A DNA stretch of 64,000 nt from Candidatus Gastranaerophilales bacterium (lineage in GTDB: Bacteria > Cyanobacteriota > Vampirovibrionia > Gastranaerophilales > Gastranaerophilaceae): contig JAEEHV010000038.1 of assembly GCA_016280955.1 (NCBI GenBank), positions 2,020 through 66,019 on the forward strand, given 5' to 3'. Below are positions 7,190 to 54,033 of the stretch, in pieces. The notes under the pieces are model-generated. The model made no database searches. It saw nothing but the letters and a program-made list of their open reading frames with translations, and was not told the DNA's origin. The position numbers and the translations under genes were made by a program. Position 1 is the first letter of the stretch. Each line of letters begins with the position of its first letter.

Positions 7190-7207
7190 ATAGTAAACTA
7201 TTGTAAC
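7190..7207 (-). promoter_or_regulatory. HLR1-like direct repeat (OmpR/RpaB-type operator), 1 mismatch
   Basis: Minus strand GTTACAAT-AG-TTTACTAT in the divergent gcvT/purD-like intergenic region. Confidence 0.45.
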
Positions 7208-7275
7208 AAATACAAATATATGAATTGTTATTTTATTCTTTTTACGGACTTATATTATGTGTTATAATTATTGCC

Positions 7276-8514
7276 ATGGGAAAAAAGATATTAATTGTTG
7301 GAAATGGCGCAAGAGAATATGCTCTTGCAAAGAAGTTTTCAGAGGAGCATGAAATATTTGTTGCTCCCGGCAACGATACAATGAAGGAATTTGCGACAAT
7401 AGTCGATATAAGACCTGATAAGGTTAACGAACTGCTTGATTTTGCACTTGAAAACAATATTGATATGACTGTTCCTTTGGCACAGGAGGCTATACAAAAT
7501 GATATTGCTGCAAGGTTTACGGAAAATAAACAATGTATTTTTGCTCCGACAGCCAATGCAAATGTTATCTCTGCAAATAAAGTACTTTCAAAAAAAATTC
7601 TTTATAAACTCAGAATCCCGACACCTAAATTCGGTATTTTTGAAAAAGCCAATCTGGCGCTTGATTATATAAAAAATCAAAAGATTCCTTTTGTATGCAA
7701 GACAAATGACAGTAACAGTGCTGTTATTTTTACTTCTGCTTCAACGGCAAAAAACTACGTAGAAACAGTATTTACCGAAAAAAATAAAAAAATTATTATT
7801 GAAGATTATGTATATGGCACACCATTTTCATATTACGCAATTACTGACGGGTACAAAGCTTTGCCTCTCGGAAGTTCGCTGACATACAAACATTCACTTG
7901 ACGGTAACGGCGGTCAGTTAACAAGCGGTACCGGAGCATGTTCCCCTAATTATAAGTTGTCCTATGATAATGAATATTTTCTAATGGACAATGTTATATA
8001 TCCGACACTGGAATATCTGGAACGTGACGGTAATCCGTATATGGGAATAATTGGCGTAAACGGTATTCTGACAGATGACGGCGAAATAGTGGTTTTAGGA
8101 TGGCAGACATTTATGCAGGATTGTGATTGTGCCGCTGTTCTAAATTCTCTGGATGAAGATTTGTACTCTCTGTTTTACTCTTGTATAATCGGTTCATTCA
8201 GTGATGAGGTAGAGAATATAAGATGTAATAATCTCTATTCTGTTTCGGTTGTATTAAGCTGTGCTAACAGACAAAATTCGGATAATGCAATTGAGGGATT
8301 GGACAATATTGATGAAGGTACAATAATTACGTTCTATCCGTCCGTAACTAAAAACAAATATCTTGAATACAACGTTCAGAACGGAATGTCGCTTATGGTT
8401 ACATCATCTTCATCAAGTGTGGCAAAAGCTGCACAAAAAACTTATTCTGAACTGAAAGAACTCAGTTTTAGAGGTATGCAGTATCGAAAAGATATATGCT
8501 TAATGCATGCGTAA
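7276..8514 (+). CDS. PurD-like ATP-grasp protein with degenerate active-site motifs
   Basis: Keeps LIVGNGAREYALA, VAPGN and TGACSP; the canonical DGLAAGKGV and EFNxRFGDPE motifs are replaced. Start moved to the ATG of MGKKILIVG. Confidence 0.75.
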   Translation: MGKKILIVGNGAREYALAKKFSEEHEIFVAPGNDTMKEFATIVDIRPDKVNELLDFALENNIDMTVPLAQEAIQNDIAARFTENKQCIFAPTANANVISANKVLSKKILYKLRIPTPKFGIFEKANLALDYIKNQKIPFVCKTNDSNSAVIFTSASTAKNYVETVFTEKNKKIIIEDYVYGTPFSYYAITDGYKALPLGSSLTYKHSLDGNGGQLTSGTGACSPNYKLSYDNEYFLMDNVIYPTLEYLERDGNPYMGIIGVNGILTDDGEIVVLGWQTFMQDCDCAAVLNSLDEDLYSLFYSCIIGSFSDEVENIRCNNLYSVSVVLSCANRQNSDNAIEGLDNIDEGTIITFYPSVTKNKYLEYNVQNGMSLMVTSSSSSVAKAAQKTYSELKELSFRGMQYRKDICLMHA

Positions 8515-8539
8515 AATATATTTTTGTATAATAAATAGC

Positions 8540-8557
8540 GTTACAAAACTTTACATT
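8540..8557 (+). promoter_or_regulatory. HLR1 direct repeat, perfect match
   Basis: GTTACAAA-AC-TTTACATT fits (G/T)TTACAWW-N2-(G/T)TTACAWW. Confidence 0.6.
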
Positions 8558-8566
8558 GGCAAAAAA

Positions 8567-8593
8567 TAAAGCAATTTTTTTTTACACCGATAC
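8567..8593 (+). promoter_or_regulatory. sigma28 (FliA/SigD)-like promoter of the RHH gene
   Basis: TAAA-N15-ACCGATAC against consensus TAAA-N15-GCCGATAA. Confidence 0.5.
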
Positions 8594-8642
8594 TTTATAT
8601 ATATATCACAGGGAAATAATTGAGAATATAAAGGAGCAAAAT

Positions 8643-8831
8643 ATGGCAAGAGTATTAATTTCAATGCCTGAAAGTTTTTTAGGTAAAATTGATGAAGTTG
8701 CAGAAAACGAGAGTCGTTCAAGATCTGAACTCATTAGAGAAGCTTTAAGAAGTTACATTACAAGGTCACAAGTCAGACAGAATACAATGGCAGATAAAAA
8801 TGCCAGAATTTTAGAGGCGCTACTGGATTAG
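8643..8831 (+). CDS. ribbon-helix-helix (CopG/Arc/MetJ family) regulator
   Basis: MARVLISMP..FLGKIDEVA....RSRSELIREAL; AAGGAG RBS before ATG 8643. Confidence 0.85.
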   Translation: MARVLISMPESFLGKIDEVAENESRSRSELIREALRSYITRSQVRQNTMADKNARILEALLD

Positions 8832-8987
8832 GATAACAAGTTTTTTGCAAGAAAACGGATGTTCTGTGCAAATACTTGTTTGGCGAGGCGGAAGAAGGCA
8901 TTGCTATGCCAAAACACGGGTATAAACGAGGATAAAATAAAAACACGAGAAAATTAGAGAAAATGAGTTGAAAAGAAAAACAACCAT

Positions 8988-9015
8988 AAGGGTTCTGCGC
9001 AGAACCCTTTTTTTT
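8988..9015 (+). terminator. intrinsic terminator
   Basis: aagggttct-gcgc-agaaccctt followed by a T-run. Confidence 0.85.
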
Positions 9016-9076
9016 GTTTTAAATACTGCACTGCAAATTCACACTTAGTATTTTGGCAAATTTTTACTTACTTTCA

Positions 9077-9418
9077 CTATTTTCCTCTACGAAAATAGGC
9101 AATGGCTGCTGTGATGAGAGCAACAATTCCAAAAATTGTAAAATAGCGCTTAAAATTGAATTCATTTGTTGATTTCTCCTTTTTGGTTCCTTCATATATA
9201 TCAGTATTAAGTTTTTTCAGGTATTGTTCCGCATCAGAAGGTCGATACAGATGTTTTGTCTGTATCAGCGGCGGGGGGACCGAGTTAGTTATTTTCGGTC
9301 GTTTCAGCTTCATATTTGAAGTTGTGTGAGCTTCAATATTAAAGTCGGTGCTTTCACCCCTTAGCGGCGGCGGTTGTGCTGCCGGATAATTGTTGTTTTC
9401 ATTTGTAATTGAATCCAT
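9077..9418 (-). CDS. hypothetical protein with C-terminal membrane anchor
   Basis: Pro-rich N-terminus; C-terminal hydrophobic helix YFTIFGIVALITAAIAYF followed by RRGK. Confidence 0.65.
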   Translation of the reverse strand: MDSITNENNNYPAAQPPPLRGESTDFNIEAHTTSNMKLKRPKITNSVPPPLIQTKHLYRPSDAEQYLKKLNTDIYEGTKKEKSTNEFNFKRYFTIFGIVALITAAIAYFRRGK

Positions 9419-10057
9419 TTAGAAAAGTTCTCCATACCTTAAAAGTTTATGAAGTTGAGTTTTCGGCAGATACATCATACCTATCTGAGCCGGTATATCG
9501 GGCATATTGTTTTTAAGACACTCCTCCATTACTTCATTACACTTAGGATCGGTAAACCTGAATCCCAGTTTGTAAAAGAACAGAGCCGGCGATGATTCAC
9601 GCATAATCGGCGCAGAAAAGGTCACAATTCGCCCATCGGCTCGGGAATCAAACATTGCCTTCTCGGCTAGCTGTTTAATAGCTGTACTTCCCAGTCCGCA
9701 GTGCGGTTTGGGAGATTGTATATAGTCAATAATATAACAATTTTTCAAATATTTAGTCTTACGTTTTATCGCAGGAGAAGAAATTATTTGTTGCGATATA
9801 AACAAATTATGACCGGATGGCGGAGAACTGCTTTTTATTTCTTCCTCTACCGTATCAACATAATCTTCATCAATTTCACCGGGTACAATAATATTATCCG
9901 CTCGCTTGATTTTCTTTACACGAATATTTGCTTTCTGATTTAGTACCGGAGTCTTAAATCCCAGAATGGCCGGCATGCTAAGGCTTGTAACCGAAGGGGT
10001 TGCTTTAGCCACCGACATCCGCGGACGCATGTCCGTAGTTGTGATGTTGTTAATCAT
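9419..10057 (-). CDS. GNAT-fold acetyltransferase-like protein
   Basis: PHCGLGSTAIKQL resembles the acetyl-CoA motif A; FFYKLGF resembles motif B. Confidence 0.55.
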   Translation of the reverse strand: MINNITTTDMRPRMSVAKATPSVTSLSMPAILGFKTPVLNQKANIRVKKIKRADNIIVPGEIDEDYVDTVEEEIKSSSPPSGHNLFISQQIISSPAIKRKTKYLKNCYIIDYIQSPKPHCGLGSTAIKQLAEKAMFDSRADGRIVTFSAPIMRESSPALFFYKLGFRFTDPKCNEVMEECLKNNMPDIPAQIGMMYLPKTQLHKLLRYGELF

Positions 10058-10149
10058 ACCTACCTAACCTATATTTATTCTAACCTTATCTATATAAAGT
10101 AAATTTTTTCCAAAAAATTGCTGTTTTATCCTATTTTCTAAGGTAAATG

Positions 10150-10177
10150 TTTACAATTCTTTACAAGTTGTTACACT
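10150..10177 (+). promoter_or_regulatory. triple HLR1-like direct repeat
   Basis: TTTACAAT-TC-TTTACAAG-TT-GTTACACT at 10-bp period between the divergent GNAT-like gene and polA. Confidence 0.6.
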
Positions 10178-10247
10178 ATCGATTGTATTGATTTGGTATA
10201 ATCAGAATTAGAATACAGACTGCTTTTTTAAGATTAGGAGTGCGTTT

Positions 10248-12926: not shown

Positions 12927-12953
12927 AAACTTTATACGAGTGTGATTTTGTTT

Positions 12954-13060
12954 CCTGCCGTAAAAGCAGGTGGGTGAGTGCCTGATTACCTCCGTTTCCC
13001 GCTGGCGATTTTTTATCGGCGGGTATACTTCATAATAACCGAGAGCTTACTCTCCCTTTT
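12954..13060 (-). ncRNA. candidate structured non-coding RNA, family unknown
   Basis: GC-rich island in AT-rich intergenic DNA with nested stems gggagagt/actcaccc, attat/gtaat, cccgc/gcggg, cgat/atcg and a cctgc/gcagg hairpin; strand inferred. Confidence 0.45.
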
Positions 13061-13243
13061 AAAAATAATGTAGGAACAAAATAAACACCCGTATAAAGTA
13101 TTAATATTATTGCATATTTTTTTGTGATTGACAACTGCTCTTTCGGCTAAAACTTATTAAGATAAAAACCCCTAAAAAGTGATTACAGGCTGAATATAAT
13201 TAAATTTTTATCATATAAAAGTATGATTTGTATGATTATCAGT

Positions 13244-13271
13244 TAAAGTCGCTGTAATATTCTGCCGTTTT
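13244..13271 (+). promoter_or_regulatory. possible sigma28-like promoter
   Basis: TAAA-N16-GCCGTTTT; spacing and the 3' half of the -10 deviate from consensus. Confidence 0.35.
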
Positions 13272-13328
13272 ACATGTTGACTTTGTCAAAAAAAAAATTA
13301 AAACATGTAAAAAATAGGAGAGTTCGCT

Positions 13329-15197
13329 ATGGGAATGGCAGCATCACAAGCAAGATATTTGGCACTTACTGCAAGAAAAACAAACACCGAATGGGAAGGT
13401 CAGCAGATAAATCAGGCAAGAACTGCTCTTGCAAATCAGAGTGCAAATCTTTTTAATCGTCTTTTGGGGCTTGAAGTTCCGAATGCTCCCAAAACGACCG
13501 ATTATACCGAGCTGCAGTATTCATATTCTGATGGCGAAAATGAATCAGTAATTGAAAAATGGGAACAACTTAGCAATAAGAACCCTGATTATAACTATAG
13601 TGTTAAGCACTATTATATGGCTGATATTTTTACCGGCGCAAAAAAATTGTTGCAAGATCCGCAGATTCAAATGGGCAACGTTCTTAAAGAACTTAATTAT
13701 GATCCAAAAAATTCAACAATAAGTCTTGATGCAAACGGAAATATTACTGTTACTTATAAAATTGAAAATGTAGAGCAAGAGCAGCAGTACACAAAAATAA
13801 CCGATGAACAAGTTGAAAGAGATAATAACTTAAAAACTGCTTTAACAAATTTTGAAACCGCAAAAAACATGGCAAAGTCAGAAGGTACCTTAACAACTGA
13901 TGCAATATACGGTTATCAGGATGCAAGCGGAACTTGGCATTTTTATGTTGCCAATGAATATTCAAAAATCAATGCTTCGCAGGTTGAACAAGATGCAGCT
14001 CTTGAAAAAGCTCTGAAGGAATTTGAAGAAAAGTATAACTTATTAAATGACGATGGAAGTGTTACCATTGAAAACATATTTGGTTCTGTCAATTCCGGCG
14101 GGGAATGGGATTTTACTATTGACGGCAGCCATGCAATAACTCAACAGGAAGTTGATGAAGATGCTGAACTTAAAGCCGCATTGACTACTTTTGAAACAAA
14201 TAATTATATGATTAATGATGACGGCACATTAAATCTCAGTAATATTCATGGATACAAATACGGAGATGAATGGCGGTTCTATTTGGACAAAGATTCTTCT
14301 GCAATTACAGCTGAAAAGGCAGATGCCGATGCTGAATTAAAAGCTGCATTAAGAACTTTTGAAGAAGCAAAAGGAATAATTCCTGCCGGTGGAGATTTGG
14401 TATATGACGATATCAGAGGATATAAAACCGGAAGCAAATGGAATTTCTTTATGGAAAATTCTTCAACTATAAATAATGTTAATATTGCAAAATCTCCGGA
14501 TGATACTGACTATTCCGTAGTTTACGGGCCTGCTTTTGTAGGAAATTCAAAACTTACCGAGTTAAATAAACTCGTTGTTGACAGCGACAGAGATCAGGTT
14601 GCCGATATTGCACAAATTCTGAGAGATTGTCCGGATTCAGCTGTTAGTAAATATGCAAGTTTTGATGATATGGGCAATCTTGTTTACAGCGGCAGCGGTA
14701 TTTATACTTTTGATTTATACGGAAAATCTTATTATACAACATACGAAGATTTAATTAACAGTGTAAATTCAACGTATGACGGCAACAAACCTATTGATAC
14801 ACAAAAAACACGTATGCCTTATTACACTGCATCATATATCCCGACAAAAGTTGAAGAAACAAACTATGCTCTTCTTGAAACTGACGGTCAGGGCAGATTC
14901 AAATCCGTAAAATTTGATAATGACAGTGTTGTTTACAATTTAAATGTTGAAACTGTTACGAATGAAGCTGCATATCAGGATGCAATGAATGAATATTTAT
15001 ACAAAAAAGAACAGTATGAAAAAACAATTGCAGATATTAACGCAAAAACCTCTATAATCCAGCAGGAGGACAGAACACTCGAATTGCGTCTTAAACAGCT
15101 TGATACAGAACAAAATGCACTAGCAACAGAAATGGATGCTGTTAAGAAAGTTATCAAAGACAACGTTGAAAAGACCTTCAAGACATTCTCAGATTAG
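13329..15197 (+). CDS. hypothetical protein with helical N- and C-termini and a repetitive acidic centre (MGMAASQAR family)
   Basis: 622 aa; AGGAG RBS; coiled-coil termini; no signal peptide. Confidence 0.85.
   Translation: MGMAASQARYLALTARKTNTEWEGQQINQARTALANQSANLFNRLLGLEVPNAPKTTDYTELQYSYSDGENESVIEKWEQLSNKNPDYNYSVKHYYMADIFTGAKKLLQDPQIQMGNVLKELNYDPKNSTISLDANGNITVTYKIENVEQEQQYTKITDEQVERDNNLKTALTNFETAKNMAKSEGTLTTDAIYGYQDASGTWHFYVANEYSKINASQVEQDAALEKALKEFEEKYNLLNDDGSVTIENIFGSVNSGGEWDFTIDGSHAITQQEVDEDAELKAALTTFETNNYMINDDGTLNLSNIHGYKYGDEWRFYLDKDSSAITAEKADADAELKAALRTFEEAKGIIPAGGDLVYDDIRGYKTGSKWNFFMENSSTINNVNIAKSPDDTDYSVVYGPAFVGNSKLTELNKLVVDSDRDQVADIAQILRDCPDSAVSKYASFDDMGNLVYSGSGIYTFDLYGKSYYTTYEDLINSVNSTYDGNKPIDTQKTRMPYYTASYIPTKVEETNYALLETDGQGRFKSVKFDNDSVVYNLNVETVTNEAAYQDAMNEYLYKKEQYEKTIADINAKTSIIQQEDRTLELRLKQLDTEQNALATEMDAVKKVIKDNVEKTFKTFSD
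13788..14451 (+). repeat. four tandem 56-57-aa protein repeats
   Basis: Units start at ITDEQV (13797), INASQV (13968), ITQQEV (14136) and ITAEKA (14304); pattern D..L..AL..FE....G.L....I.G....W.F. Confidence 0.85.
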
Positions 15198-15244
15198 TAT
15201 TCTGTTTGATAAAATTTTTATACTTGTATTCAGAGAGAGCTGCA

Positions 15245-19538: not shown

Positions 19539-19539
19539 G

Positions 19540-20610
19540 TTATATCACCGTACTTTCTTCATTTCTGTCAATTAAATCTTTGTTTGCCAGCTTGCCCATG
19601 TGCTTTGCTCTGTATATAGAGTTTGTTATTGTTCCCAGAGTGAGAGCAGCTGTAAATAATAACCAGCCTTTGCCGGCATGCTTCATAAATCCTTTGGTAC
19701 CCGGTTCGCCGGTCCAGAAGGTTTTACATGCTTTGCCGAATGACTTGCCGAAAGATTTTGTTAATTTAACGGTATTTTTAGATGTGTTAGCGATTTTGCC
19801 GCCCAATTTTGAGAAGAAACCTTCACCTTCTTTTGCAATATATTTAGGTCTGTCAGAGAAGTTCTTAAAGAAGTCTGCCCAGCTGTTCTGAACCGCAAGA
19901 CCTACACCGACACCTGCCCACGCATATGAGGATAAGCTCTTAGCAGTTTTTGTTGTTGCAACAATGCTCTGTATAATTGGTGTTGTTTCCGTAACCGAAT
20001 CATTCAGATTTTCGCCAAGACCGATTTTTCTTGCAATATTATCATAATATGCAGTGCCGTATCTCGGATCTTTTGCCAATAAATCTTTTCTGAAGAATTC
20101 AATACTGTCATAAACTTTTCTTTGCTGGTGCTGAGGTATTATTTCCGCATCTGCTCCCGGTTTTGTAGGAAGCGGATAATAAACATTTCTGTATGGCATT
20201 TCAATATCAACACCTGTTGACCATGCTATCGGACGAGTGATTAAATCATTGGAAAGTGTTTTGCCAAGTCCGTATAAAACAACACCAAGCCCCATCTTTT
20301 TACCGGTCAAAGCTGCTTTTGGAGTTAAGTGTTTATTGACCAGATTAAACATTCCCATAAACATGCCGCTGCCGATTAAATATGGTATTATGCCTATTGC
20401 TAAAAATTCGTAAAAATCAGAATTTACATCTCCTCTTAAACCTTTGACGGGGTATTCTATTATTGCACTGGTTGTTTTGTCGTATTTCTGATTAATTCTT
20501 GTTTTCAGAGTATTTGGAAGAATCATGGATTCCTGATTTTCCGGCTTTTCTTTTTTAGAATTAGCCTGAAAATTTATACTATTATCTGATAATCTTACTT
20601 CCTTAATCAT
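19540..20610 (-). CDS. hypothetical membrane-associated protein, distant paralog of the 852-aa N-domain
   Basis: Four hydrophobic Gly-rich segments; shares an I..P......G.DI...Y motif with its neighbour. Confidence 0.8.
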   Translation of the reverse strand: MIKEVRLSDNSINFQANSKKEKPENQESMILPNTLKTRINQKYDKTTSAIIEYPVKGLRGDVNSDFYEFLAIGIIPYLIGSGMFMGMFNLVNKHLTPKAALTGKKMGLGVVLYGLGKTLSNDLITRPIAWSTGVDIEMPYRNVYYPLPTKPGADAEIIPQHQQRKVYDSIEFFRKDLLAKDPRYGTAYYDNIARKIGLGENLNDSVTETTPIIQSIVATTKTAKSLSSYAWAGVGVGLAVQNSWADFFKNFSDRPKYIAKEGEGFFSKLGGKIANTSKNTVKLTKSFGKSFGKACKTFWTGEPGTKGFMKHAGKGWLLFTAALTLGTITNSIYRAKHMGKLANKDLIDRNEESTVI

Positions 20611-20681
20611 ACGAACCCCATTGGTACCTATATATAAAAAGTCATGTGAAGTTTAATTTTTGCTAGTAAAAGAACAGTAAT

Positions 20682-20699
20682 TTTACATTTCTTTACAAA
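20682..20699 (+). promoter_or_regulatory. HLR1 direct repeat, perfect match
   Basis: TTTACATT-TC-TTTACAAA upstream of the 20610 operon. Confidence 0.6.
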
Positions 20700-20820: not shown

Positions 20821-22194
20821 TTACTGATGCGGAGTTTTGACACCTTTTGTAATAGCTTCGATAATTCTTTGAACCTTAACTATTTCAATATCGTCAAAAG
20901 ACTCCTGCACTTCATTTGCTTCAGGAATTATTATCCTTTTAAATCCGAGTTTTTTAGCTTCGTTAATACGTTTTTCGATATGATTTACGGCACGAATTTC
21001 ACCGGATAATCCGAGTTCTCCGACAATTGCTGTCTGCATGTCAAAAATAACATCCCGTACGCATGTTACAATAGCAAGTGCAATACCCAAATCCGCAGCA
21101 GGTTCATTGACATCAATTCCACCGATAACATTTACATATACATCTTGTTTGGAAAGGTTCAGACCGATTCTTTTTTCCAAAACCGCAAGAATCTGTAAAA
21201 CACGCCCCGTATCAACCCCATTTGCTATTCTTCTGGGTGCCGGATATGGAGTTGTTCCCACAAGAGCCTGTACTTCAACAAGCAGCGGTCTTGTTCCTTC
21301 GTTGGTAACAATTATCGTACTGCCGGGAGTTTGTGTACGGTTATATTCTTTTAGAAAAAGTTCGCTCGGATTAATAACTTCTTTAAGTCCGTTTGCACCC
21401 ATCTCAAAAATACCGACTTCTGAGGTATTTCCGAAACGGTTTTTGATGGAACGTAAAATTCTGTATGATTTGTATTTATCACCTTCAAACTGTATAACTG
21501 TATCAACCATGTGTTCCAAAACTTTAGGACCGGCAATATTACCTTCTTTTGTAACATGCCCTATAACAATAATTGATAAATTTTTTGATTTGGAAATTTG
21601 CATAAGCACATTACAGCATTCTCTTATTTGAGATACACTGCCTGCCGAACTCTGTATAAGTGATGTATAAATTGCCTGAATACTGTCAACTATAACTAAA
21701 TCCGGCTGCAAAATGTCTATATGTTTTTTTATTAACTCTAAATTTGTTTGCGGATATATGTATAAATTATCTGATTTTACACCAAGTCTTTCGGCACGTA
21801 GTTTAACCTGAGTGGCGGATTCTTCTGCAGATATATATAAAACCTTCTTACTTTGTTTGCAAAGCTCCCCTGATGTTTGCAAAAGAATTGTAGATTTACC
21901 GATTCCCGGATCGCCTGCAAGAAGAATTAATGAACCCTGAACAATACCGCCGCCAAGTACCCGGTCAAACTCTGATATATTTGTTGTAATCCGTATTTCT
22001 GAGTTCATTTCAATTTCTGAAAGTTTTTTCGGTGGCACAGAATCAACAACTTCAGTTACAAATTCCTTTTTTTCGGCAGAAATCGTTTCTTCAACAAAAG
22101 TACCCCAACCACCGCACTCAGGACATTTTCCCAAATACCCTGCCGTTTCATAACCACAATTCTGACATACATATTTTGATTTGATTTTTGCCAT
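20821..22194 (-). CDS. radA: DNA repair protein RadA/Sms
   Basis: C4 zinc finger CQNC...CPEC, Walker A GDPGIGKS, KNRFG motif, Lon-like C-terminus; start set at MAKIKSKY. Confidence 0.97.
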   Translation of the reverse strand: MAKIKSKYVCQNCGYETAGYLGKCPECGGWGTFVEETISAEKKEFVTEVVDSVPPKKLSEIEMNSEIRITTNISEFDRVLGGGIVQGSLILLAGDPGIGKSTILLQTSGELCKQSKKVLYISAEESATQVKLRAERLGVKSDNLYIYPQTNLELIKKHIDILQPDLVIVDSIQAIYTSLIQSSAGSVSQIRECCNVLMQISKSKNLSIIVIGHVTKEGNIAGPKVLEHMVDTVIQFEGDKYKSYRILRSIKNRFGNTSEVGIFEMGANGLKEVINPSELFLKEYNRTQTPGSTIIVTNEGTRPLLVEVQALVGTTPYPAPRRIANGVDTGRVLQILAVLEKRIGLNLSKQDVYVNVIGGIDVNEPAADLGIALAIVTCVRDVIFDMQTAIVGELGLSGEIRAVNHIEKRINEAKKLGFKRIIIPEANEVQESFDDIEIVKVQRIIEAITKGVKTPHQ

Positions 22195-22207
22195 ATTCAC
22201 CATAAAG

Positions 22208-22235: not shown

Positions 22236-22257
22236 TTTATACTACTACACTTTCATA

Positions 22258-22824
22258 CTAACCTTTATTAACGGGAATTATTAATTTTTGACCTATGGAT
22301 AAAGCGTTAGGATTAGCCATTTTATTAGCATCCTGTATCAAACCTACTTTTTCCATGTCAAAAGTTCCGTAAAATCTTATAACTATACTTTCTAAAGTAT
22401 CCCCTTCTTTAACGGTATATTCTTTATTTTTATATGTTGCTGCTGATGTACTCTTTGCTGAGTCAGCCGGTATAAATCTAAACTTGCCGTTATCAGTGGT
22501 AGTAACTTGTTTTGAAGGTTTAATACTTATATCTTCTTTTGGAGTTGTTACATTGATTAATAAACTGACAAAAGTGGTAATTATTAATGTAATTATTACA
22601 CCAACAATCAATCCCATAACGAAATATACCTGAGGAGTCTTTTCGTTTTTCTGAGCTCTGGTTGCAACACCCAGATTTTGCCAAAGAGCATCCAGCTCAC
22701 GGCTTTTTGTTTGTCGTCTGTAAAAATCCTCGTCCTGATGTTCTCTGTTATAGCGATTCAGTGCTTCCATCATTGCGACTTTTTCTCTTGTAATATTTGA
22801 TCTTCTAAGTGTTGTGCTTTTCAT
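22258..22824 (-). CDS. membrane-anchored LysM domain protein
   Basis: One TM helix; C-terminal YTVKEGDTLESI......N.M.NPNAL.IGQKLIIP. Confidence 0.9.
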   Translation of the reverse strand: MKSTTLRRSNITREKVAMMEALNRYNREHQDEDFYRRQTKSRELDALWQNLGVATRAQKNEKTPQVYFVMGLIVGVIITLIITTFVSLLINVTTPKEDISIKPSKQVTTTDNGKFRFIPADSAKSTSAATYKNKEYTVKEGDTLESIVIRFYGTFDMEKVGLIQDANKMANPNALSIGQKLIIPVNKG

Positions 22825-22907: not shown

Positions 22908-22925
22908 TATGTAAAGATTTGTTAA
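22908..22925 (-). promoter_or_regulatory. HLR1-like direct repeat, 1 mismatch
   Basis: Minus strand TTAACAAA-TC-TTTACATA upstream of the LysM gene. Confidence 0.4.
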
Positions 22926-22942: not shown

Positions 22943-23428
22943 TTATTCTGCGAATTGTTCAGCAACTTCAAACGGCTGCTCGGAAAGTTTAAGTGTTTCT
23001 CTGTCAATAATTCCGCGTTTTAATTCAGTAAATGATGCTTTTTTTGAGTTAAATACTTTTTTTAGAAATTCATAAGCAACCTTAGGATCGCATTTTGTTC
23101 CGCATGTAAATAAATCTACGGCAGCATAGCCTAATTCCGGCCATGTATGAATTGCCAAGTGACTTTCGGATATAATTACTACACCGGATACACCATAGGG
23201 GTTAAACATGTGAAAGCACTTTTGAACGATTGTCGCACCACACTCAAGAGCTGCATCTATCATGTACTTTTCTACTTTATCAATGTTATTTAAAATATTC
23301 GAATCACATTCAAAAAATTCTGCAAGAACGTGTTGACCTAAATTAACTGTGTCTAAATTAGAATGAGTCTCAAGCTCTTTTAGTGATGATGATACAATTG
23401 TCAATTCATGTGCCTCCATTTCTACCAA
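22943..23428 (-). CDS. speD: S-adenosylmethionine decarboxylase proenzyme
   Basis: GVSGVVIISESHLAIHTWPE pyruvoyl autocleavage motif; DLFTCG. Confidence 0.95.
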   Translation of the reverse strand: MVEMEAHELTIVSSSLKELETHSNLDTVNLGQHVLAEFFECDSNILNNIDKVEKYMIDAALECGATIVQKCFHMFNPYGVSGVVIISESHLAIHTWPELGYAAVDLFTCGTKCDPKVAYEFLKKVFNSKKASFTELKRGIIDRETLKLSEQPFEVAEQFAE

Positions 23429-23517: not shown

Positions 23518-23535
23518 TTAACAAAATGTTACAAT
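23518..23535 (+). promoter_or_regulatory. HLR1-like direct repeat, 1 mismatch
   Basis: TTAACAAA-AT-GTTACAAT upstream of speD. Confidence 0.4.
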
Positions 23536-32178: not shown

Positions 32179-32183
32179 TTATA

Positions 32184-38444: not shown

Positions 38445-38447
38445 AAA

Positions 38448-41758: not shown

Positions 41759-41761
41759 AAT

Positions 41762-45672: not shown

Positions 45673-45767
45673 ATATATAAAATACCACATATATAAAAAT
45701 AAGTCTTAATTCTGTCGGGTAGTTTTATATACTGGAATTTTAAACAAAAGTATTGTAAAATAAGTTT

Positions 45768-46211: not shown

Positions 46212-46235
46212 GAGTTTTAGGTTTATAATATATTT

Positions 46236-47784: not shown

Positions 47785-47835
47785 AGCAATTAAACCGCCC
47801 AAATTATTATTTTGACGTGTTTATCCAACTGTATA

Positions 47836-49068
47836 TTAAAAAGAAATAACCTCATGGAACGAATCGATTGCAAATGTATCACTCATTCCTGAGAGGAAAT
47901 CCAGAACACAGTTTTTATATTCCTGCTCATCATCAAGATGATAAATAAGTTTGTTTTTGCATCTTTTGTTTTCTTTTTCCGCTAAATTATAGTCGGAGTA
48001 TTTAGTAAGCCATCCTTCATAAATAGTGTATAACTTAGGATACAGGATTTTTTCTTTTGCGATAACATCTCTGACGTTATTGCCTGTTAAATTTTCTCCA
48101 AGCTGTTCATAAAGAGTTTCAATAATGAGAGTTGCATATTTTTTAAACTTCGAAATTCTTGGGTGGTTACAGATATTTTTGTAATTGAATTGTTTTACAA
48201 GTTTAAGCACCTGGAAGCAATCCTCAGAGAAACAAAGCCCGTCCTCTATTGAGGAATTAGCACACAGGTTCAGTATCAAAGAGTGTGTGAAAGAGGATGT
48301 GTTTAACTCGTTTATTTTAATATTGGGATAAATGGTATGAACAACATTCAATAATTCTTCTTTTTGCTCTTTTTTCAGAATACCGTATGAAATGGCATCT
48401 TCTATATCACGTCCTATATAACCGATTTTATCGGATATTTTTACAACACACCCTTCGTAAGTATATGCCCCGTTTTTACCTCCTTTTTGGATTGAATACA
48501 GATCACAGGCATCTTCTCTCGGTTTAACATATCTTTCATCAACTTCTCCGCAATGACATACAATACCGTCACGAACTGCATATGTAAGGTTTAAATTTTG
48601 CTGATAACCGCTATAGTCAGTGATAGTTTCAATTTTATCAATAAATCTAAGACTGTTATTTTCATGCCAAAAAGAGTGAAGGTTATTCGCTTCTGCAATA
48701 TCCTGCAAAACAGTTTCACCATGGTGTCCAAACGGTGCATGTCCTATATCGTGCCCGAGTGCAATAGCTCTTGCAAGCTCTTTATTAAGGTTTAGGTACT
48801 TGGCAATTGTTTCAGCAACGGAGGCTACAAGCTGAACATGCTCCATTCTTGTACAAACGTGGTCATTCTGAGGAGCAAAGAATACCTGAGTTTTATGCTT
48901 TAGCCTTCGGTATCCTTTAGAGTGCATAATCCGCATTTCATCACGTTCAAACGGAGTCCGCAAATCGTTCTCTTTTTGATAAAGTTCGGCTTCTCTTGAG
49001 ATTGCCTGTTCCCACTTGGGGTTGTTTTCATCCATTCTGACACATGAAAAATCTGCAAGCTTATTCAT
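47836..49068 (-). CDS. dgt: dGTP triphosphohydrolase-like HD-domain protein
   Basis: RTPFERD..RI.HS..YRRL.HKTQVF, TR..H, GHDIGHAPFGH.GE, SD.I.Y..RDIED, D..SGMSD. Confidence 0.9.
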   Translation of the reverse strand: MNKLADFSCVRMDENNPKWEQAISREAELYQKENDLRTPFERDEMRIMHSKGYRRLKHKTQVFFAPQNDHVCTRMEHVQLVASVAETIAKYLNLNKELARAIALGHDIGHAPFGHHGETVLQDIAEANNLHSFWHENNSLRFIDKIETITDYSGYQQNLNLTYAVRDGIVCHCGEVDERYVKPREDACDLYSIQKGGKNGAYTYEGCVVKISDKIGYIGRDIEDAISYGILKKEQKEELLNVVHTIYPNIKINELNTSSFTHSLILNLCANSSIEDGLCFSEDCFQVLKLVKQFNYKNICNHPRISKFKKYATLIIETLYEQLGENLTGNNVRDVIAKEKILYPKLYTIYEGWLTKYSDYNLAEKENKRCKNKLIYHLDDEQEYKNCVLDFLSGMSDTFAIDSFHEVISF

Positions 49069-49136
49069 ACTTTATCCGCTCCTGTATCTCTTTACCACTA
49101 TGACCGTTAAAATTATTTTGTTATCGTTTCATTTTA

Positions 49137-51134
49137 TCAGAATCCTATACTGTTTTTCAACTCTTTGGATTTTTTTACTTTTACTTCTTCTCTTAGCATT
49201 GTTACAATTTCGTCCAAATCAATAATATCCAGAAAATCAGTTTTCTTTTTAACGGTTGCAAAATCTCCCGCAGTCAACCCTTTAATATCGATATTTTTAT
49301 CTTTAACTTTTATTCCGAAAAAGTGTTCAATTGCACAATTTACCTGTTCATTGTTCATAAAGTCGAAGCGGATTTTAAATGTAAAGCGTCTCAGAGATGC
49401 TTCGTCCAATGTATCAAGCAGGTTTGTAGTACATACAAACGGATATTCATGCGATTCCATCCAAGTAAGCATTTCATTAACTTGTGTAATTTCCCAGGAA
49501 TGTGATGCATTATTTCTGTTTTGTAAAAAGCTGTCTGCTTCATCAAAAATCAGCATCGCTTTTTTAGATTTTGCTTCCGCAAAAGCAGCGGCAATGTTCT
49601 GCTCTGATTCGCCAACCCATTTGCTCATCAAATCACTTGCCCTTTTATAAATAACTTCAACACCGAGCTGTTTTGCAAGATACCTTGCATATTGAGATTT
49701 TCCTGTTCCCGGCTCACCATACAGGCAAAGTGAAAAATTGAGCTTTCCGCAAGATTTTATTTTTTGTGTAAGATTTTTTATGTCAACGTCAGTATTAACA
49801 AGACTTTCATCGTATTCTTTTAATTCAAATTCTTTTTTGTTTTTTACGTTTTTCTTTTTCGTCACAACCTTGGCAACATTCTCAATTAGACCTTCAAAGT
49901 CATTTTCATCACCGCCAATCATTTTTGTTGTCTGAACGGCATTAGAAATAAGTGATGGAGGAATATCATAGTTTTTATTTAATTCCGTTAATTTTTCTTT
50001 GCTGACCTTTAGTTTATTCTTTTTAATAACTCTGTTCCAGATATTGAGCCTTGTTTCTTCAGACAGTTTTTCAAATTCAATACAATAAGTCATTCTTCTG
50101 AGGAAAGCCGGATCCACATCGTATATGTTATTTGTAGTCCAGATTATTGGAACGGACGTTGTTTCCAGAAGGGTATTAAGATAGCCTTTTGATGCCGAAC
50201 CTCCGTAACCGAACCCTCTGTTCATAACATCTTCGCCTTCATCAAAAAGAATACAGGCACCTTCGGTTCTGGAAAGTAAATGCTGCTTTGCATTCAAATC
50301 CACAAGTCGATCTTCTCTGTCGGCTTCTTTATAATTCATATTTCCCAATTCTGTTATAACGGAATACATAGGAATGTTTGCTTTATTTGCAATCAGTTTT
50401 GAGTATTCGGTTTTTCCTGTTCCGACACCGCCATACAGAAGAATATTAACTCCTTTTTTCTTTTGCATAACTGCCTGAGATAAAATATTTATAACCTTTT
50501 GAGTATCTTTGATATGAGAAAAATCCTCAAGTTTTAATGTTGCTTTTTGTTTTTTTCCTATAAGAATGCTGATTATTTTATCTGCAGAATCACATTGCGG
50601 ATTATCCAGAATTTCCAGAAAAATATCGTTTATACAATCACTGCGTCTGCTTTCGGTAATATTTTTCCGGTGCAGACCGTCTAAAAGACGTTCCTTCTTG
50701 CCGCATCTGAGTCCCAGATAGACTCTTGAAAAAGTGGACAGAGATTGATTTTCCAAACATTCAAAATACTTGTCAAAAATATTATTGATTTCTTTGAATG
50801 CCATATATAGTAATATTTCATACTCCATATTATTTAGTGTAAAAATCTCTTTGATAGTTAATAATTGCTGCTCAAGCTTAGTGTTTCTCGGCTGAATTTT
50901 TTCTTTAAGTTTTTTTACAACTTTTTTCATCTGTTTAGCAAAAACTTCCCTTGCTTTTGTTGACTCAAGTTCAAGGTTTCCGTCTTTATCAATACAATCA
51001 AACTGTTTCGGGTTAATCTTAAATTCGTTCAGCATAAAATCAAATACGGCATCAAACGAATAACTGTTAGTATCAGTTACCGGCATAAGTTTTTCCACAT
51101 AATCTAAAAATTTTCTTTTTTCAAAATTGTTCAT
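49137..51134 (-). CDS. tandem (two-domain) AAA+ ATPase with N-terminal helical domain
   Basis: Walker A GGVGTGKT and GEPGTGKS; Walker B ILFDE and LIFDE; AAGGAG RBS before ATG 51134. Confidence 0.9.
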   Translation of the reverse strand: MNNFEKRKFLDYVEKLMPVTDTNSYSFDAVFDFMLNEFKINPKQFDCIDKDGNLELESTKAREVFAKQMKKVVKKLKEKIQPRNTKLEQQLLTIKEIFTLNNMEYEILLYMAFKEINNIFDKYFECLENQSLSTFSRVYLGLRCGKKERLLDGLHRKNITESRRSDCINDIFLEILDNPQCDSADKIISILIGKKQKATLKLEDFSHIKDTQKVINILSQAVMQKKKGVNILLYGGVGTGKTEYSKLIANKANIPMYSVITELGNMNYKEADREDRLVDLNAKQHLLSRTEGACILFDEGEDVMNRGFGYGGSASKGYLNTLLETTSVPIIWTTNNIYDVDPAFLRRMTYCIEFEKLSEETRLNIWNRVIKKNKLKVSKEKLTELNKNYDIPPSLISNAVQTTKMIGGDENDFEGLIENVAKVVTKKKNVKNKKEFELKEYDESLVNTDVDIKNLTQKIKSCGKLNFSLCLYGEPGTGKSQYARYLAKQLGVEVIYKRASDLMSKWVGESEQNIAAAFAEAKSKKAMLIFDEADSFLQNRNNASHSWEITQVNEMLTWMESHEYPFVCTTNLLDTLDEASLRRFTFKIRFDFMNNEQVNCAIEHFFGIKVKDKNIDIKGLTAGDFATVKKKTDFLDIIDLDEIVTMLREEVKVKKSKELKNSIGF

Positions 51135-51202
51135 GGTTTTGCTCCTTGTTAAACGGGATATCACATTCCCTTTTGCTATTCATTTTCGTTTCTTACATAT
51201 AC

Positions 51203-51234
51203 ATAATATCAGACAAATGCGACAGAAATGGACG
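51203..51234 (-). promoter_or_regulatory. WYL-activator-like (-26 element) promoter of the AAA gene
   Basis: CGTCCATTTC-TGTCGC-N10-TATTAT on the minus strand. Confidence 0.55.
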
Positions 51235-51262
51235 GAGGAAGAAAAACTTTTTTCTTCCTCCG
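51233..51262. terminator. 14-bp perfect inverted repeat between the DUF2130 and AAA genes
   Basis: cggaggaagaaaaa-ct-tttttcttcctccg. Confidence 0.6.
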
Positions 51263-51299
51263 GTAAAATAAAAAAGAAATGTTCTCTGTTGATTCCAAT

Positions 51300-52610
51300 T
51301 TATTTTTTCTTTTTTTTGTCCGTTATTTTTAAGGCATCAAATTTTGCTTTCATTGTCGGATTATTTCTTGTAAGCTTTTTAATACTAAGGTCTTCTACCT
51401 TATTGTTAGCGGAGCTGAGGTGCTTTTCGGATAAAAGCAGTGCATCTTTTATACTCTGCAGATTTTTGATGGCTTTATCAATACCAGATATAGCATCATT
51501 AAACCTCAAGCCTGCATCTTTCACGTTTTTAACAAATTTATCCTTAAAATCGTTTAATTCGGCTTCGAAATTGGACACATCAATGTTTTGCATTTTTATC
51601 CGCTCAAGTTCTTTTCTGTATTCAAGCGAATGTCTTGCTGCATCTCTGAGCAGGGTAATTATCGGAATAAAGAACTGAGGTCTTATTACATACATTTTTT
51701 CATATTTATAAGAAACATCAACAATTCCGCTGTTATATAAATCACTTTCCGGCTCAAGAAGTGATACTAAAACTGCATATTCACATTTCTTTTCTTTGCG
51801 GTCTTTATCGAGTTCTTTAAAGAAATCTTCGTTCTTTTTCTTAGTCGATGTTGTGTCTGCTTCGTTTTTCATCTCAAACATAATCGATATATATTCATTT
51901 TTATCTTCATCGTATGCTCTGAAAATATAGTCGCCTTTACTGCCGGATTTTACATCATTGTCTTTTTCAAAATACGAACCTGAAAAAGCAGTAGAACGGA
52001 ATCTGTTGAACTCTGTTTCGCAGTGTTGTTCAAGAGTTTCACCAATCATTTTAGTTGATAATTTTGCTTTAAAATCTTTGTATTGTTCGATTGTTTCATC
52101 TTTGAGCTTAAGCTGAATTTCATATCTTTCTTTGAGTGATTGTTCTCTGAGCAGACATTCTTTTTCTGTTAATGCCTGTTCGCTTTTAAGTTTTTCAATG
52201 CTGTTTTCTTTTTTCGCTATTTCTTCGGTTAGTTTTGACTCAAGTTTTTTTAATTCAAGCAGCTTATCTTTCTCAAAAGATGAAAGCTGATTCCTGAGTT
52301 CGGCAATTTCTTTATCTTTTTCGGCAGCAGTTTCTTTAACGGCAGATTTTTTAATAAGGTCGCTTTCTTTAATTTTAGCTTCCAGTTTTGCAATTTCAGC
52401 ATCTTTTTTCGTTAATTCAATATTGAAGCCTTTTTCTGCTTCCAGTTTTGCAACCTGAATTGCCTGATTTTTTTCTGATTCAAATTGCTGCTCACGGCTT
52501 TGAAGCTCTTTAGAGAATTCTTTATCTCTTACCTGTTTAAGTATTGCAGCATATCCTGCTTCATCGATTTGAAATTTTTCACCGCATTTTGGGCATTGAA
52601 GATTGTTCAT
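51300..52610 (-). CDS. DUF2130-like coiled-coil protein with a putative PD-(D/E)xK nuclease domain
   Basis: N-terminal CPKCG..F.IDE, long coiled coil, KGD.....IMFEMKNE and YEKMYVIRPQFFIP; start at ATG 52610 with GAGGT RBS. Confidence 0.8.
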   Translation of the reverse strand: MNNLQCPKCGEKFQIDEAGYAAILKQVRDKEFSKELQSREQQFESEKNQAIQVAKLEAEKGFNIELTKKDAEIAKLEAKIKESDLIKKSAVKETAAEKDKEIAELRNQLSSFEKDKLLELKKLESKLTEEIAKKENSIEKLKSEQALTEKECLLREQSLKERYEIQLKLKDETIEQYKDFKAKLSTKMIGETLEQHCETEFNRFRSTAFSGSYFEKDNDVKSGSKGDYIFRAYDEDKNEYISIMFEMKNEADTTSTKKKNEDFFKELDKDRKEKKCEYAVLVSLLEPESDLYNSGIVDVSYKYEKMYVIRPQFFIPIITLLRDAARHSLEYRKELERIKMQNIDVSNFEAELNDFKDKFVKNVKDAGLRFNDAISGIDKAIKNLQSIKDALLLSEKHLSSANNKVEDLSIKKLTRNNPTMKAKFDALKITDKKKKK

Positions 52611-52662
52611 GGTTATTACCTCTTTTTTGTTTAATTTAGTATCATTAGTTTTTGGTTGTTTT

Positions 52663-53109
52663 TTAGTTGTTTTTGTTGTGTACATAAGTACCTCCTTTTA
52701 TTTTAGTACAGTTGGAAAATTTTGGACTTGGTTCGAGTTCGTTAATGTTATCCATTACGAACCGGTAAATCTGCCTGAAGTATTCTATGTTATCGTTTGT
52801 AACAAATTGTTCGTGACAGTTTGTACAGTAGAATTGGATTGTATGTGCGCCGGAAAGAACCGAACCCCCGCACATATAGGGGATTAAAGTATTAATTTTG
52901 CAGTTTGGACAGATTTCTTTTTGAAACAATCCGCTTTTCAGCCGGTATGAACCGAGCCAGATAAGAGCCGCATCAAGCGGCATTTGGTCATTAAGTTCGG
53001 AGCTGTTTATATGAGAAAAAATCTCAGGATAAATTTCTCCGGCATAATGAGTTTTTGTTTTTGACGGAAGCTGCTTTTCAACTTCACTTTTTGATTTGAA
53101 TTTTGTCAT
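52663..53109 (-). CDS. hypothetical protein with a C4 zinc-ribbon
   Basis: CPNC and CTNC pairs; GAGGT RBS; first gene after the SAM riboswitch terminator. Confidence 0.75.
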   Translation of the reverse strand: MTKFKSKSEVEKQLPSKTKTHYAGEIYPEIFSHINSSELNDQMPLDAALIWLGSYRLKSGLFQKEICPNCKINTLIPYMCGGSVLSGAHTIQFYCTNCHEQFVTNDNIEYFRQIYRFVMDNINELEPSPKFSNCTKIKGGTYVHNKNN

Positions 53110-53210
53110 TTTTCGTTACCTCATATTTAATATTTCTTATCAGGTTTCCCTGATTTTATACGTTTGATAACTCATAGAGGCACGAATGGTTAACACATAT
53201 CTTTTTTAAG

Positions 53211-53249
53211 GAAAAGAAAAAGGCTCATCGCAATGACAAGCCTTTTCTT
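53211..53249 (-). terminator. riboswitch-associated intrinsic terminator
   Basis: Minus strand aagaaaaggctt-gtcat-tgcg-atga-gcctttttctttt. Confidence 0.8.
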
Positions 53250-53284
53250 GCAAGCAAAGTTAGTTACACAAAGCAGAAAGGAGG

Positions 53285-53381
53285 TCTCATCATTCAAGCA
53301 TTAGCACCTTCAGAATAAAATATATTTATTCCGGGTTGCTGTGTAGTCATCGGGCTTGTCCCTCGTACACTCTCTATGAGA
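53285..53381 (-). ncRNA. SAM-I (S-box) riboswitch aptamer, P4-less variant
   Basis: P1 tctcat/atgaga; AGAG; P2 gtgta/tacac with kink-turn and GAGGGAC..GCCCGATGA; AGCAACC...AAGGTGCTAA (P3); loop CAAG can pair with CTTG (pseudoknot). Confidence 0.88.
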
Positions 53382-53416
53382 TTGGTTATTCAATTTTCAA
53401 TGTATTTGTTATTGTT

Positions 53417-53488
53417 TTAATCATCAAAGAAATCTTCGAGTTCATCCCAATAACAGAATAAAAGTAGTCCTATTAGCCAGAGAGGCAT
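53417..53488 (-). CDS. unannotated 23-aa small protein MPLWLIGLLLFCYWDELEDFFDD
   Basis: AAGAGGTGG Shine-Dalgarno 5 nt before ATG; candidate promoter directly upstream. Confidence 0.55.
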   Translation of the reverse strand: MPLWLIGLLLFCYWDELEDFFDD

Positions 53489-53527
53489 TTTTACCACCTC
53501 TTTTTGTTTATTTTCTCTGATATTTTT

Positions 53528-53559
53528 ATTGTAAAATACTGCTGTGTCAAAAATGGACG
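53528..53559 (-). promoter_or_regulatory. WYL-activator-like (-26 element) promoter
   Basis: CGTCCATTTT-TGACAC-N10-TACAAT on the minus strand. Confidence 0.55.
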
Positions 53560-53576
53560 TATGTATTTTATTATTT

Positions 53577-53867
53577 TTAAATTACTTTCAGCATCGGATG
53601 TTTTTTTATAAAACGAAGCTTGCTGAATGCTTGTGCTTCAATCTGTCGGACTCTTTCTCTTGTAATTCCGAAAATATTTCCGACTTCATTAAGAGTTTTC
53701 GGAATATTGTCAGCCAAACCGTAACGTAATGCTATTACATCCTGTTCTTTTAATTTAAGCTGCTGAAAGTCAGATACTTTAAAAGTTATTTCAAATTTTT
53801 TGTTGTTAGAATCTTTTGTAATAACTATTTCGTCTTTGTTTCTTGTAACATTAATTTCCTGTTTCAT
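53577..53867 (-). CDS. standalone sigma70 region-4 HTH protein
   Basis: VIALRYGL....[29 protein letters not shown]; no region 2 or 3. Confidence 0.85.
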
Positions 53868-53938
53868 ATTTACCTCTTTTTTTATAAATTGTATTTATTT
53901 ACTTATAACGAGATTCACAAATTTTCCCTTACAAATAC

Positions 53939-53970
53939 ATAATACAATACCCCCTTGTCAAAAACGGTCA
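53939..53970 (-). promoter_or_regulatory. WYL-activator-like (-26 element) promoter
   Basis: TGACCGTTTT-TGACAA-N10-TATTAT on the minus strand. Confidence 0.5.
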
Positions 53971-54015
53971 TATAAATTTGAGGTAAAAGAATAATAAATA
54001 ATATTTGGTTACATT

Positions 54016-54033
54016 AATGTAACACATTGTAAA
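54016..54033 (-). promoter_or_regulatory. HLR1 direct repeat, perfect match
   Basis: Minus strand TTTACAAT-GT-GTTACATT; an adjacent inverted half-site GTTACATT lies at 54008-54015. Confidence 0.6.

Follow-up and report, generated by a model that had tools for sequence, protein, structure and literature searches.

The OmpR-family regulator RpaB is essential in cyanobacteria and red-lineage plastids, where it is central to light and redox acclimation. Melainabacteria (class Vampirovibrionia), gut bacteria of humans and animals, are the non-photosynthetic sister group of the oxygenic cyanobacteria. The closest described system is that of RpaB (also Ycf27 or Rre26) and its operator HLR1 in Synechocystis PCC 6803 and Synechococcus elongatus PCC 7942 (PMC6525291). 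In Synechocystis, boxes are centred at -51 in RpaB-activated promoters and at -5 in repressed ones (PMC6525291). Homologues of RpaB, RpaA and NblS were reported in Melainabacteria by Di Rienzi et al. 2013 (PMC3787301) and Soo et al. 2014 (PMC4040986); their role was left open, with the remark that they "may have another function" (PMC3787301). Orthology of the regulator is therefore already published and is not new here. No publication was found that treats this box in Melainabacteria, the genes under its control or the way it is coupled to sigma-28-type promoters. The stretch analysed here, called the window, comprises 64,000 nucleotides of a Gastranaerophilales metagenome-assembled genome (MAG) of 2.78 Mb (93 contigs, 34% G+C), of which it forms contig C53 (window G+C 33-36%). 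It carries repeats with the architecture of HLR1, which we consider to be probably operators of the RpaB orthologue acting mainly as an activator that would gate some 100-150 promoters.

The box was defined as KTTACAWW-N2-KTTACAWW, that is two (G/T)TTACA(T/A)(T/A) octamers in direct repeat with a spacer of exactly 2 nt. The window contains three perfect boxes, whereas 100 dinucleotide shuffles averaged 0.00, and seven boxes with at most one mismatch, against 0.72 expected; seven were reached in no shuffle. The initial annotation of this DNA had located perfect repeats at 8540-8557 (+), 20682-20699 (+) and 54016-54033 (-), together with one-mismatch copies at 7190-7207 (-), 22908-22925 (-) and 23518-23535 (+), and all of them were recovered. 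The triple array that it described at 10150 is real, with three in-phase octamers spanning 10150-10177, and its estimate of about 0.03 perfect chance matches per window is close to the value of about 0.025 given by base composition. As it had stated, these sites (three perfect and four with one mismatch) are intergenic; this holds for seven out of seven with crude open reading frame (ORF) calling. Ten matches carry two mismatches. Eight of them are in coding DNA and the other two, at 7180 and 10160, are in-phase extensions of the 7190 and 10150 arrays.

The enrichment extends to the whole genome. Coding DNA makes up 88% of the genome, yet of 77 perfect copies 73 fall mostly between genes. Sixty-nine are contained entirely in intergenic segments, whereas 0.18 would be expected from first-order Markov simulations of that DNA (335 kb, 30% G+C). 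One-mismatch copies behave similarly (86 of 109 are intergenic), and a reversed-pattern control gave 3 matches versus 77. The comparison of intergenic with coding DNA that had been suggested as a check is thus overwhelmingly positive. Spacing is equally strict: intergenic direct repeats of the octamer number 69 at the 2-nt spacer versus 0 to 5 at each of the remaining spacers between 0 and 15 nt, octamers in inverted orientation give 0 to 7 copies, and the TTACA core recurs at exactly 10 bp 91 times (2 to 13 times at other distances). Octamer, spacer and enrichment together support the earlier identification of the repeats as an operator of HLR1 architecture, which is genuine and under strong selection.

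The genome-wide working set (159 sites) was then considered in its promoter context. No fixed distance separates the box from a sigma-70-type -10 hexamer. That arrangement was rejected, and the fixed distances point to alternative promoter elements. With sites oriented by their downstream gene, the commoner orientation places the TGTAAA strand toward that gene, and one of two promoter types follows. The type B promoter, TAAAGTTTT-N10/11-(T)GCCGATA(A/T), corresponds to the sigma-28/FliA consensus and has 95 pattern matches in the genome. Among these 95 promoters, 32 have a box with at most two mismatches that ends 17 nt upstream; the gap is 16 nt at a further 3, 27-28 nt at 8 and 7 nt at 3, and the orientation never varies. 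The 32 promoters with the 17-nt gap share the consensus TAAAGTTTT-N10/11-TGCCGATA, with an A-tract directly upstream of the -35 element. The link with sigma-28 noticed in the initial annotation is therefore real and, with gaps fixed at 17, 27 or 7 nt, much tighter than had been seen. The perfect box at 54016-54033 reads as a textbook composite of this kind: it is TTTACAATGTGTTACATT on the minus strand, and its plus-strand form AATGTAACACATTGTAAA ends 17 nt before the -35 element of a sigma-28-type promoter at 54051-54077 (+), composed of TAAAGTTTT (54051-54059), N10 and GCCGATAA (54070-54077). This promoter drives a 949-aa gene (54104-56953) whose product has no Pfam match. A FliA/WhiG-family sigma factor is encoded on contig C8 (ORF at about 50.9-51.7 kb, minus strand), scoring 232.8 bits on TIGR02479 (cut-off 189.6) and 215.4 bits on NF005413 (cut-off 201).

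The type A promoter, G[C/A]AATT-N16-CTTTATATATAT(GTAAG), has 116 intergenic instances. GCAATT lies exactly 22 nt before CTTTATA in 36 cases and TGAAAT exactly 23 nt before it in 16, a spacing unlike that of sigma-70 promoters. Here the gaps from box to ACTTTATA are 37-39 or 47-49 nt when the TGTAAA strand faces downstream and 24-26 or 34-36 nt in the opposite orientation. Window examples are found at 8571-8603 (+), 10091-10121 (-) and 60703-60740 (+). The genome also encodes a SigB/F/G-family sigma factor (C9:20039-20845), which is a candidate reader of type A promoters. When strict patterns are applied to the 159 sites, 34 are assigned to the sigma-28 class, 31 to type A and 94 to neither.

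If the TAAA of type B promoters is placed at about -35 to -33, the box would span about -70 to -51 and be centred near -60, with the other gaps giving centres near -50 and -70. Gaps that differ by whole helical turns upstream of a free core promoter correspond to an activator geometry, and on these positions we lean toward activation from about -60 as the dominant mode. Some boxes, however, overlap likely core promoters or take the other orientation, so repression is likely at a subset of them. RpaB could also bind the boxes chiefly to repress or to counter activation, keeping the promoters off until released by a signal, as happens at cyanobacterial hliA/hliB. Cyanobacterial RpaB indeed activates or represses according to position; several boxes are less than 60 nt from a start codon or possibly cover a -35 element, and the array at 7180-7207 runs into TTGACA. 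On the other hand, in the dominant class 17 nt, including an A-tract, separate the box from the -35 element downstream, the core promoter is left free and the phase is kept at 7, 17 and 27 nt. This is typical of activation and equals the activating class of Synechocystis shifted by one turn, which makes predominant repression unlikely.

The likeliest candidate for binding is the RpaB orthologue. The genome contains only three OmpR-family genes (C7:5435-6223, C28:48337-49032 and C36:24990-25697), none of them in the window; the earlier judgement that the two-component pair of the window is unlikely to be the binder is thus probably right, if indirectly. With the RpaB equivalog NF045944 (cut-off 330) the C7 protein (262 aa) reaches 355.6 bits, whereas its C28 and C36 paralogues remain at about 205-206 bits. 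The same cut-off was passed in 10 of 10 Cyanobacteriota genomes, where the paralogues scored about 90-150 bits lower, and among 14 well-known control genomes only by Synechococcus elongatus. In a maximum-likelihood tree (IQ-TREE) the RpaB clade has a support of 97/99, and within it the C7 protein branches as sister (98/95) to the RpaBs from those sampled genomes that are presumed to be photosynthetic cyanobacteria, while the C28 protein groups with an RpaA-like clade. The phylogeny proposed in the initial annotation therefore does reveal an RpaB-clade regulator, encoded outside the window. Homologues with 72-93% identity occur in Gastranaerophilales/Vampirovibrio MAGs, mostly from animal gut; the next matches are Synechococcus MAGs (65% and 53%), and identity does not exceed 45% outside the phylum. 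The DNA-binding domain is 69-73% identical to that of cyanobacterial RpaB. Its positioning helix RLTGMEFSLLELLV, recognition helix DTRVVDVHISRLR and wing ELILTARG are identical to the cyanobacterial ones, and the recognition helix is invariant in 20 orthologues. The C28 and C36 paralogues differ in helix and wing (IETIRVHIRHLR) and show 30-31% identity in the domain.

We regard it as very probable from these features that RpaB binds the boxes. The operators could also be real but read by another protein, either the RpaA-like C28 protein, the C36 protein or an unrelated factor of a flagellar hierarchy. Direct repeats of 10-11 bp are a general mode of the OmpR/PhoB family, which has these two further members in the genome; the C28 protein falls in the RpaA-like clade and one box overlaps the 3' end of its gene. 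Against this, octamer and 2-nt spacer are exactly those of the RpaB site defined by experiment, and the RpaB recognition helix and wing are kept only in the C7 protein. A different binder is accordingly quite improbable.

The C7 protein departs from its cyanobacterial counterparts at the position of Cys59, the single cysteine of Synechocystis RpaB and a thioredoxin target (PMC4361706). Cys59, a redox-sensitive residue of the receiver domain and a functional trait, not one that defines the family, is replaced by Thr (GVTREIR for GVCQELR), and no cysteine occurs anywhere in the protein. Thr is also found in all 16 Gastranaerophilales/Vampirovibrio orthologues with a readable motif (among the 19 checked, L004-L022), most of which lack cysteine. 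In addition, the interdomain linker of the C7 protein carries a Ser-rich insertion (GSGSSSSSSKNSKN). For the kinase C59:94628-96487 (619 aa), which by eye looks like a membrane-anchored HAMP/PAS histidine kinase, the best match is NblS (NF045911, 320 bits), with WalK second (294.5). In published trees melainabacterial homologues are placed at the root of the NblS clade (bioRxiv 10.1101/2025.01.21.633742).

Could the box be a promoter cassette, read directly by RNA polymerase in the manner of an UP element or spread by duplication, with no dedicated regulator? Sixty-two of the 159 sites link to one another at 75% identity or more over at least 50 bp, a likeness that covers the promoter side of the box; some composite promoters and their leaders are near-duplicates ahead of paralogous genes, and the spacer carries an A-tract. 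However, stringent clustering separates the 159 sites into 132 clusters at 80% identity over at least 70 bp and 145 clusters at 85% over 80 bp, as expected for shared functional elements rather than copies. The strongest information is carried by the C and the flanking bases of TTACA, recurring every 10 bp, unlike UP elements made of A/T only. The same box serves two promoter classes, in two orientations and at several phased distances, and it also occurs in photosynthetic cyanobacteria, where RpaB binding has been demonstrated. We hold the cassette for very improbable. Membership of the boxes in a dispersed repeat family is likewise rejected by the stringent clustering. A single enriched spacer, flanks with almost no information and 132 clusters lead to the conclusion that the boxes are operators and not a dispersed repeat, and that they are functional is almost certain. 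A compositional accident can be dismissed: the motif is A/T-rich and the intergenic DNA has only 30% G+C, but 69 copies versus 0.18 simulated, a single enriched spacer and a reversed control of 3 versus 77 refute it.

The motif itself, how it is enriched and spaced, the fact that it recurs across the family, an orthologous regulator and an identical DNA-reading helix are all observed. Binding, activation, the kinase partner and the start sites we infer as follows. A head-to-tail RpaB dimer would occupy the two octamers of the 10-bp repeat, the C7 protein being phosphorylated by the presumed partner, the NblS-like kinase on C59. In the dominant layout the TGTAAA strand faces downstream and the box ends 17 nt, less often 7 or 27 nt, before a sigma-28 (FliA)-type -35 element, with equivalent phased positions before type A promoters. 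The A-tract between box and -35 element would then probably provide a contact for the alpha subunit of the polymerase, in a class I activator geometry. The box centre near -60 would be one helical turn upstream of the -51 activating position of Synechocystis. It is this upstream, phased geometry that leads us to read RpaB as mainly an activator.

The box recurs throughout the family. Perfect boxes number 9 to 38 per genome in 40 of 40 sampled family genomes, versus 0 to 12 for the reversed control, and 42, 72 and 26 in the closer relatives G123, G122 and G121; other genomes of the phylum, most of them presumably photosynthetic cyanobacteria, have 0 to 27. The box-N17-YWAAG composite occurs 30 times in this genome (reversed control 0) and 2 to 10 times in 40 of 40 family genomes (reversed control 0 to 3). 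Individual sites, by contrast, turn over fast. Many genes that adjoin boxes in relatives have no homologue in this genome. For same-genus targets that do have one, 5 of 10 carry a box with at most one mismatch here, versus a background of 7.2%, the 356-aa gene of the window being among them. Identical boxes TTTACATTTCGTTACATT lie at or near several contig ends of G122 (e.g. C30:29-46, C55:10-27 and C26:2361-2378), which suggests that a repeated, assembly-breaking element carries the box in that genome.

This turnover bears on the regulon proposed in the initial annotation, which was thought to govern gcv, polA and speD. No box was found upstream of polA in any of 29 family relatives, and the phase of the 10150 array fits a type A promoter on the opposite strand; on these grounds polA was rejected as a target. 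The likely target of the array is instead the 212-aa gene 9419-10057, whose homologue has a perfect box in G121. Glycine cleavage fares no better: gcvP is an RpaB target in Synechocystis, and the gcvT upstream region has no box in 24 relatives, so gcvT is rejected as a conserved target. The case of speD is intermediate, with a site that is kept in the same genus (at the equivalent position in a same-genus genome), in G122 and in few other genera, and nowhere wider. As for the proposal that an RpaB-like regulon predates photosynthesis, it agrees with the tree, where the C7 protein is sister to the RpaBs of the presumed photosynthetic genomes. It rests, however, on parsimony, and in the sampled deeper, apparently GC-rich families of Cyanobacteriota RpaB is present with little or no box enrichment (0 to 7 versus 0 to 3 in the control).

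The targets are mostly fast-evolving genes of unassigned role; fliD, speD and genes of the envelope or of secretion are also among them. For ten sigma-28/box targets, Pfam yielded essentially nothing. Three of the ten belong to a six-member family with the invariant N-terminus MGMxxSQxRxLxLTxR, a variable middle and a conserved C-terminal helix (window 13329-15197 (+), C67:7556-8737, C77:98245-99747, C78:1419-2654, C71:36911-38485 and C28:92322-93308); four paralogues lie behind sigma-28-type promoters with a box. The family, with its flagellin-like start MGMxASQARLL, has no Pfam match and its profile no match in the PDB, and its members were rejected as true flagellins. Other single targets are FliD, a 5'-nucleotidase, a GAF/HD-GYP protein, S-adenosylhomocysteine hydrolase (ahcY), a GT4 (MraY/WecA-like) transferase, a phosphorylase-like protein, an AAA ATPase and a ShlB-type transporter of two-partner secretion. 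Among these, fliD fits the sigma-28 class, being driven by a box-linked sigma-28 promoter.

Two further sites concern regulatory genes. A one-mismatch box at C36:142849 (+) is located 198 nt upstream of a group-2-like sigma gene (C36:141752-142651, minus strand). Because RpaB of S. elongatus binds the rpoD3 and rpoD6 promoters (PMC6525291), control of a sigma gene may be a theme common to both lineages. Another one-mismatch box, at C28:49026-49043 (-), overlaps the last codons of the RpaA-like gene (C28:48337-49032) and precedes the type A promoter of the next gene (C28:49139-50044).

Several observations weigh against the reading of the boxes as operators of a mainly activating RpaB. Site turnover is high, and the sites at polA and gcvT are found in this genome only. 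The 94 sites that match neither promoter class include degenerate versions such as that at 20682, the box positions relative to the start site derive from the promoter consensus alone, and the overlapping or differently oriented boxes mentioned above do not fit the dominant layout. The intergenic assignments depend on crude ORF calling in a genome that is 88% coding. The strict sigma-28 pattern precedes only 1 of 12 Flagellin_N genes and few of these genes have boxes; with canonical flagellin genes mostly devoid of both, the "flagellar" label of the promoter class is only partly borne out. The C59 kinase is far below the NF045911 equivalog cut-off of 1000, and WalK scores nearly as well. Finally, the 140 nt upstream of rpaB contain no box, and autoregulation of this gene was rejected on that ground. 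As to the Flagellin_N loci themselves (e.g. C4:38786-39196, C58:15341-15757 and C93:64-1486), some of their upstream regions show GGCAC/TGGAAC-like strings.

The remaining window sites illustrate the range of contexts. The perfect box at 8540-8557 (+) has the same orientation as its downstream gene and lies 13 nt before the GCAATTT (8571-8577) of a type A promoter, completed by CTTTATATATA at 8593-8603; the ATG of the small gene that follows, whose product looks by eye like a ribbon-helix-helix (CopG) protein, is at 8643. The perfect box at 20682-20699 (+) is upstream of a minus-strand 356-aa gene (19540-20610, no Pfam match), a target kept in the same-genus genome G123. On the transcribed strand it is of the TGTAAA type and ends 18 nt before GCAAAAATT (20655-20663), first element of a degenerate type A promoter whose second element is CTTTTTATATATA (20629-20641). 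This box is adjoined by a gene for a RadA/Sms-like protein with a KaiC/RecA-type ATPase and Lon_C/ChlI domains (20821-22203, minus strand), which probably serves ordinary DNA repair and is unlinked to the box. At 10150-10177 (+) the three in-phase octamers read TTTACAAT TC TTTACAAG TT GTTACACT, of which 10150-10167 forms the one-mismatch box. On the minus strand the array ends 28 nt before the GCAATTT (10115-10121) of the type A promoter at 10091-10121 (-), completed by CTTTATATA (10091-10099), which fires leftward into the 212-aa gene (minus strand) and away from polA.

The box at 7190-7207 (-) is extended by an in-phase third half-site, TTGACATA at 7180-7187. This array (7180-7207) occupies the divergent region between gcvT (6023-7132, minus strand) and a PurD-like gene (7225-8514, plus strand). 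Two one-mismatch boxes precede minus-strand genes: that at 23518-23535 (+), in the TGTAAA-downstream orientation, is 89 nt upstream of speD (22943-23428), and that at 22908-22925 (-), in the orientation of the gene, is 83 nt upstream of a LysM-domain gene (22258-22824). The weak copy included in the initial annotation at 60681-60698 (+), TTAGCAATTCTTAACAAA, has three mismatches, does not stand on its own and was left uncounted; it is followed by a type A promoter (GGCAATT ... ATACTTTATATATA). Divergent from the composite at 54016-54077 is a gene for a 96-aa protein (53577-53867, minus strand) that consists of sigma-70 region 4 only (Pfam PF04545, E = 3.8e-15) and might act as a small regulator or as a decoy of the anti-sigma kind.

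These results turn the 2013 remark on the RpaB of Melainabacteria into a concrete, testable regulon. An operator has been kept letter for letter across the split between oxygenic cyanobacteria and Melainabacteria, yet is wired here to sigma-28-type promoters and a second class ahead of motility-linked, surface and orphan genes, which bears on the role of the system before, or without, photosynthesis, and on how a regulator-operator pair can be frozen while its regulon is replaced wholesale. It also bears on how sigma-28 promoters can become activator-dependent, and the defined promoter grammar offers a handle on many orphan genes of an uncultured gut group. More speculatively, and with considerable doubt, RpaB-HLR1 and an NblS-like kinase might have begun as a control of motility, surface and secretion through alternative sigma factors (sigma-28 and a second promoter class) in a non-photosynthetic ancestor of cyanobacteria, and later have been rewired to photosynthesis with the gain of the thioredoxin-sensitive Cys59. 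In gut Melainabacteria this system might to this day act as master activator of a secretome that evolves fast and resembles flagellar export.

Compared with the RpaB regulon of oxygenic cyanobacteria, the system described here has an identical operator, an orthologous regulator with the same DNA-reading helix and wing, about a hundred promoters and an NblS/Hik33-like kinase. It would also share a position-dependent logic with an upstream activating position. It differs in that there are no photosynthesis genes to control and the targets are sigma-28-type and type A promoters. The dominant box centre would be near -60 and not at -51, and orientation is fixed at sigma-28 promoters. The regulator itself differs by Thr in place of Cys59 and by the Ser-rich linker insertion.

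Three other known systems offer partial parallels. The WalR (YycF) box of Firmicutes is TGTWAH-N5-TGTWAH, with an 11-bp period. It resembles ours in being a direct repeat bound by an OmpR-family protein, with a half-site that is nearly the same on the other strand (TGTAAA/TGTAAC); moreover YycF is the third-best NCBIfam match of the C7 protein and WalK the second-best of the kinase. However, the period here is strictly 10 bp (the 3-nt spacer giving 11 bp has 1 copy versus 69), and both proteins are far below the YycF and WalK cut-offs. In class I activation by OmpR/PhoB-family and CRP-type regulators, sites are found near -61.5 and -71.5. The boxes likewise lie upstream of the -35 element with whole-turn gaps (7, 17 and 27 nt) and an A-tract where the alpha C-terminal domain would sit, although the sigma factor of the partner holoenzyme would be sigma-28 or another alternative one, not sigma-70. 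Sigma-28 (FliA/SigD/WhiG) promoters have the consensus TAAA-N15-GCCGATAA and in model bacteria usually work without an activator bound upstream. Agreement with this class is seen in the consensus of the 32 composites, the encoded FliA/WhiG sigma factor and the driven fliD. Unlike the promoters of model bacteria, about half of those found here carry an upstream RpaB-type box, and most of the genes they drive are not recognisably flagellar.

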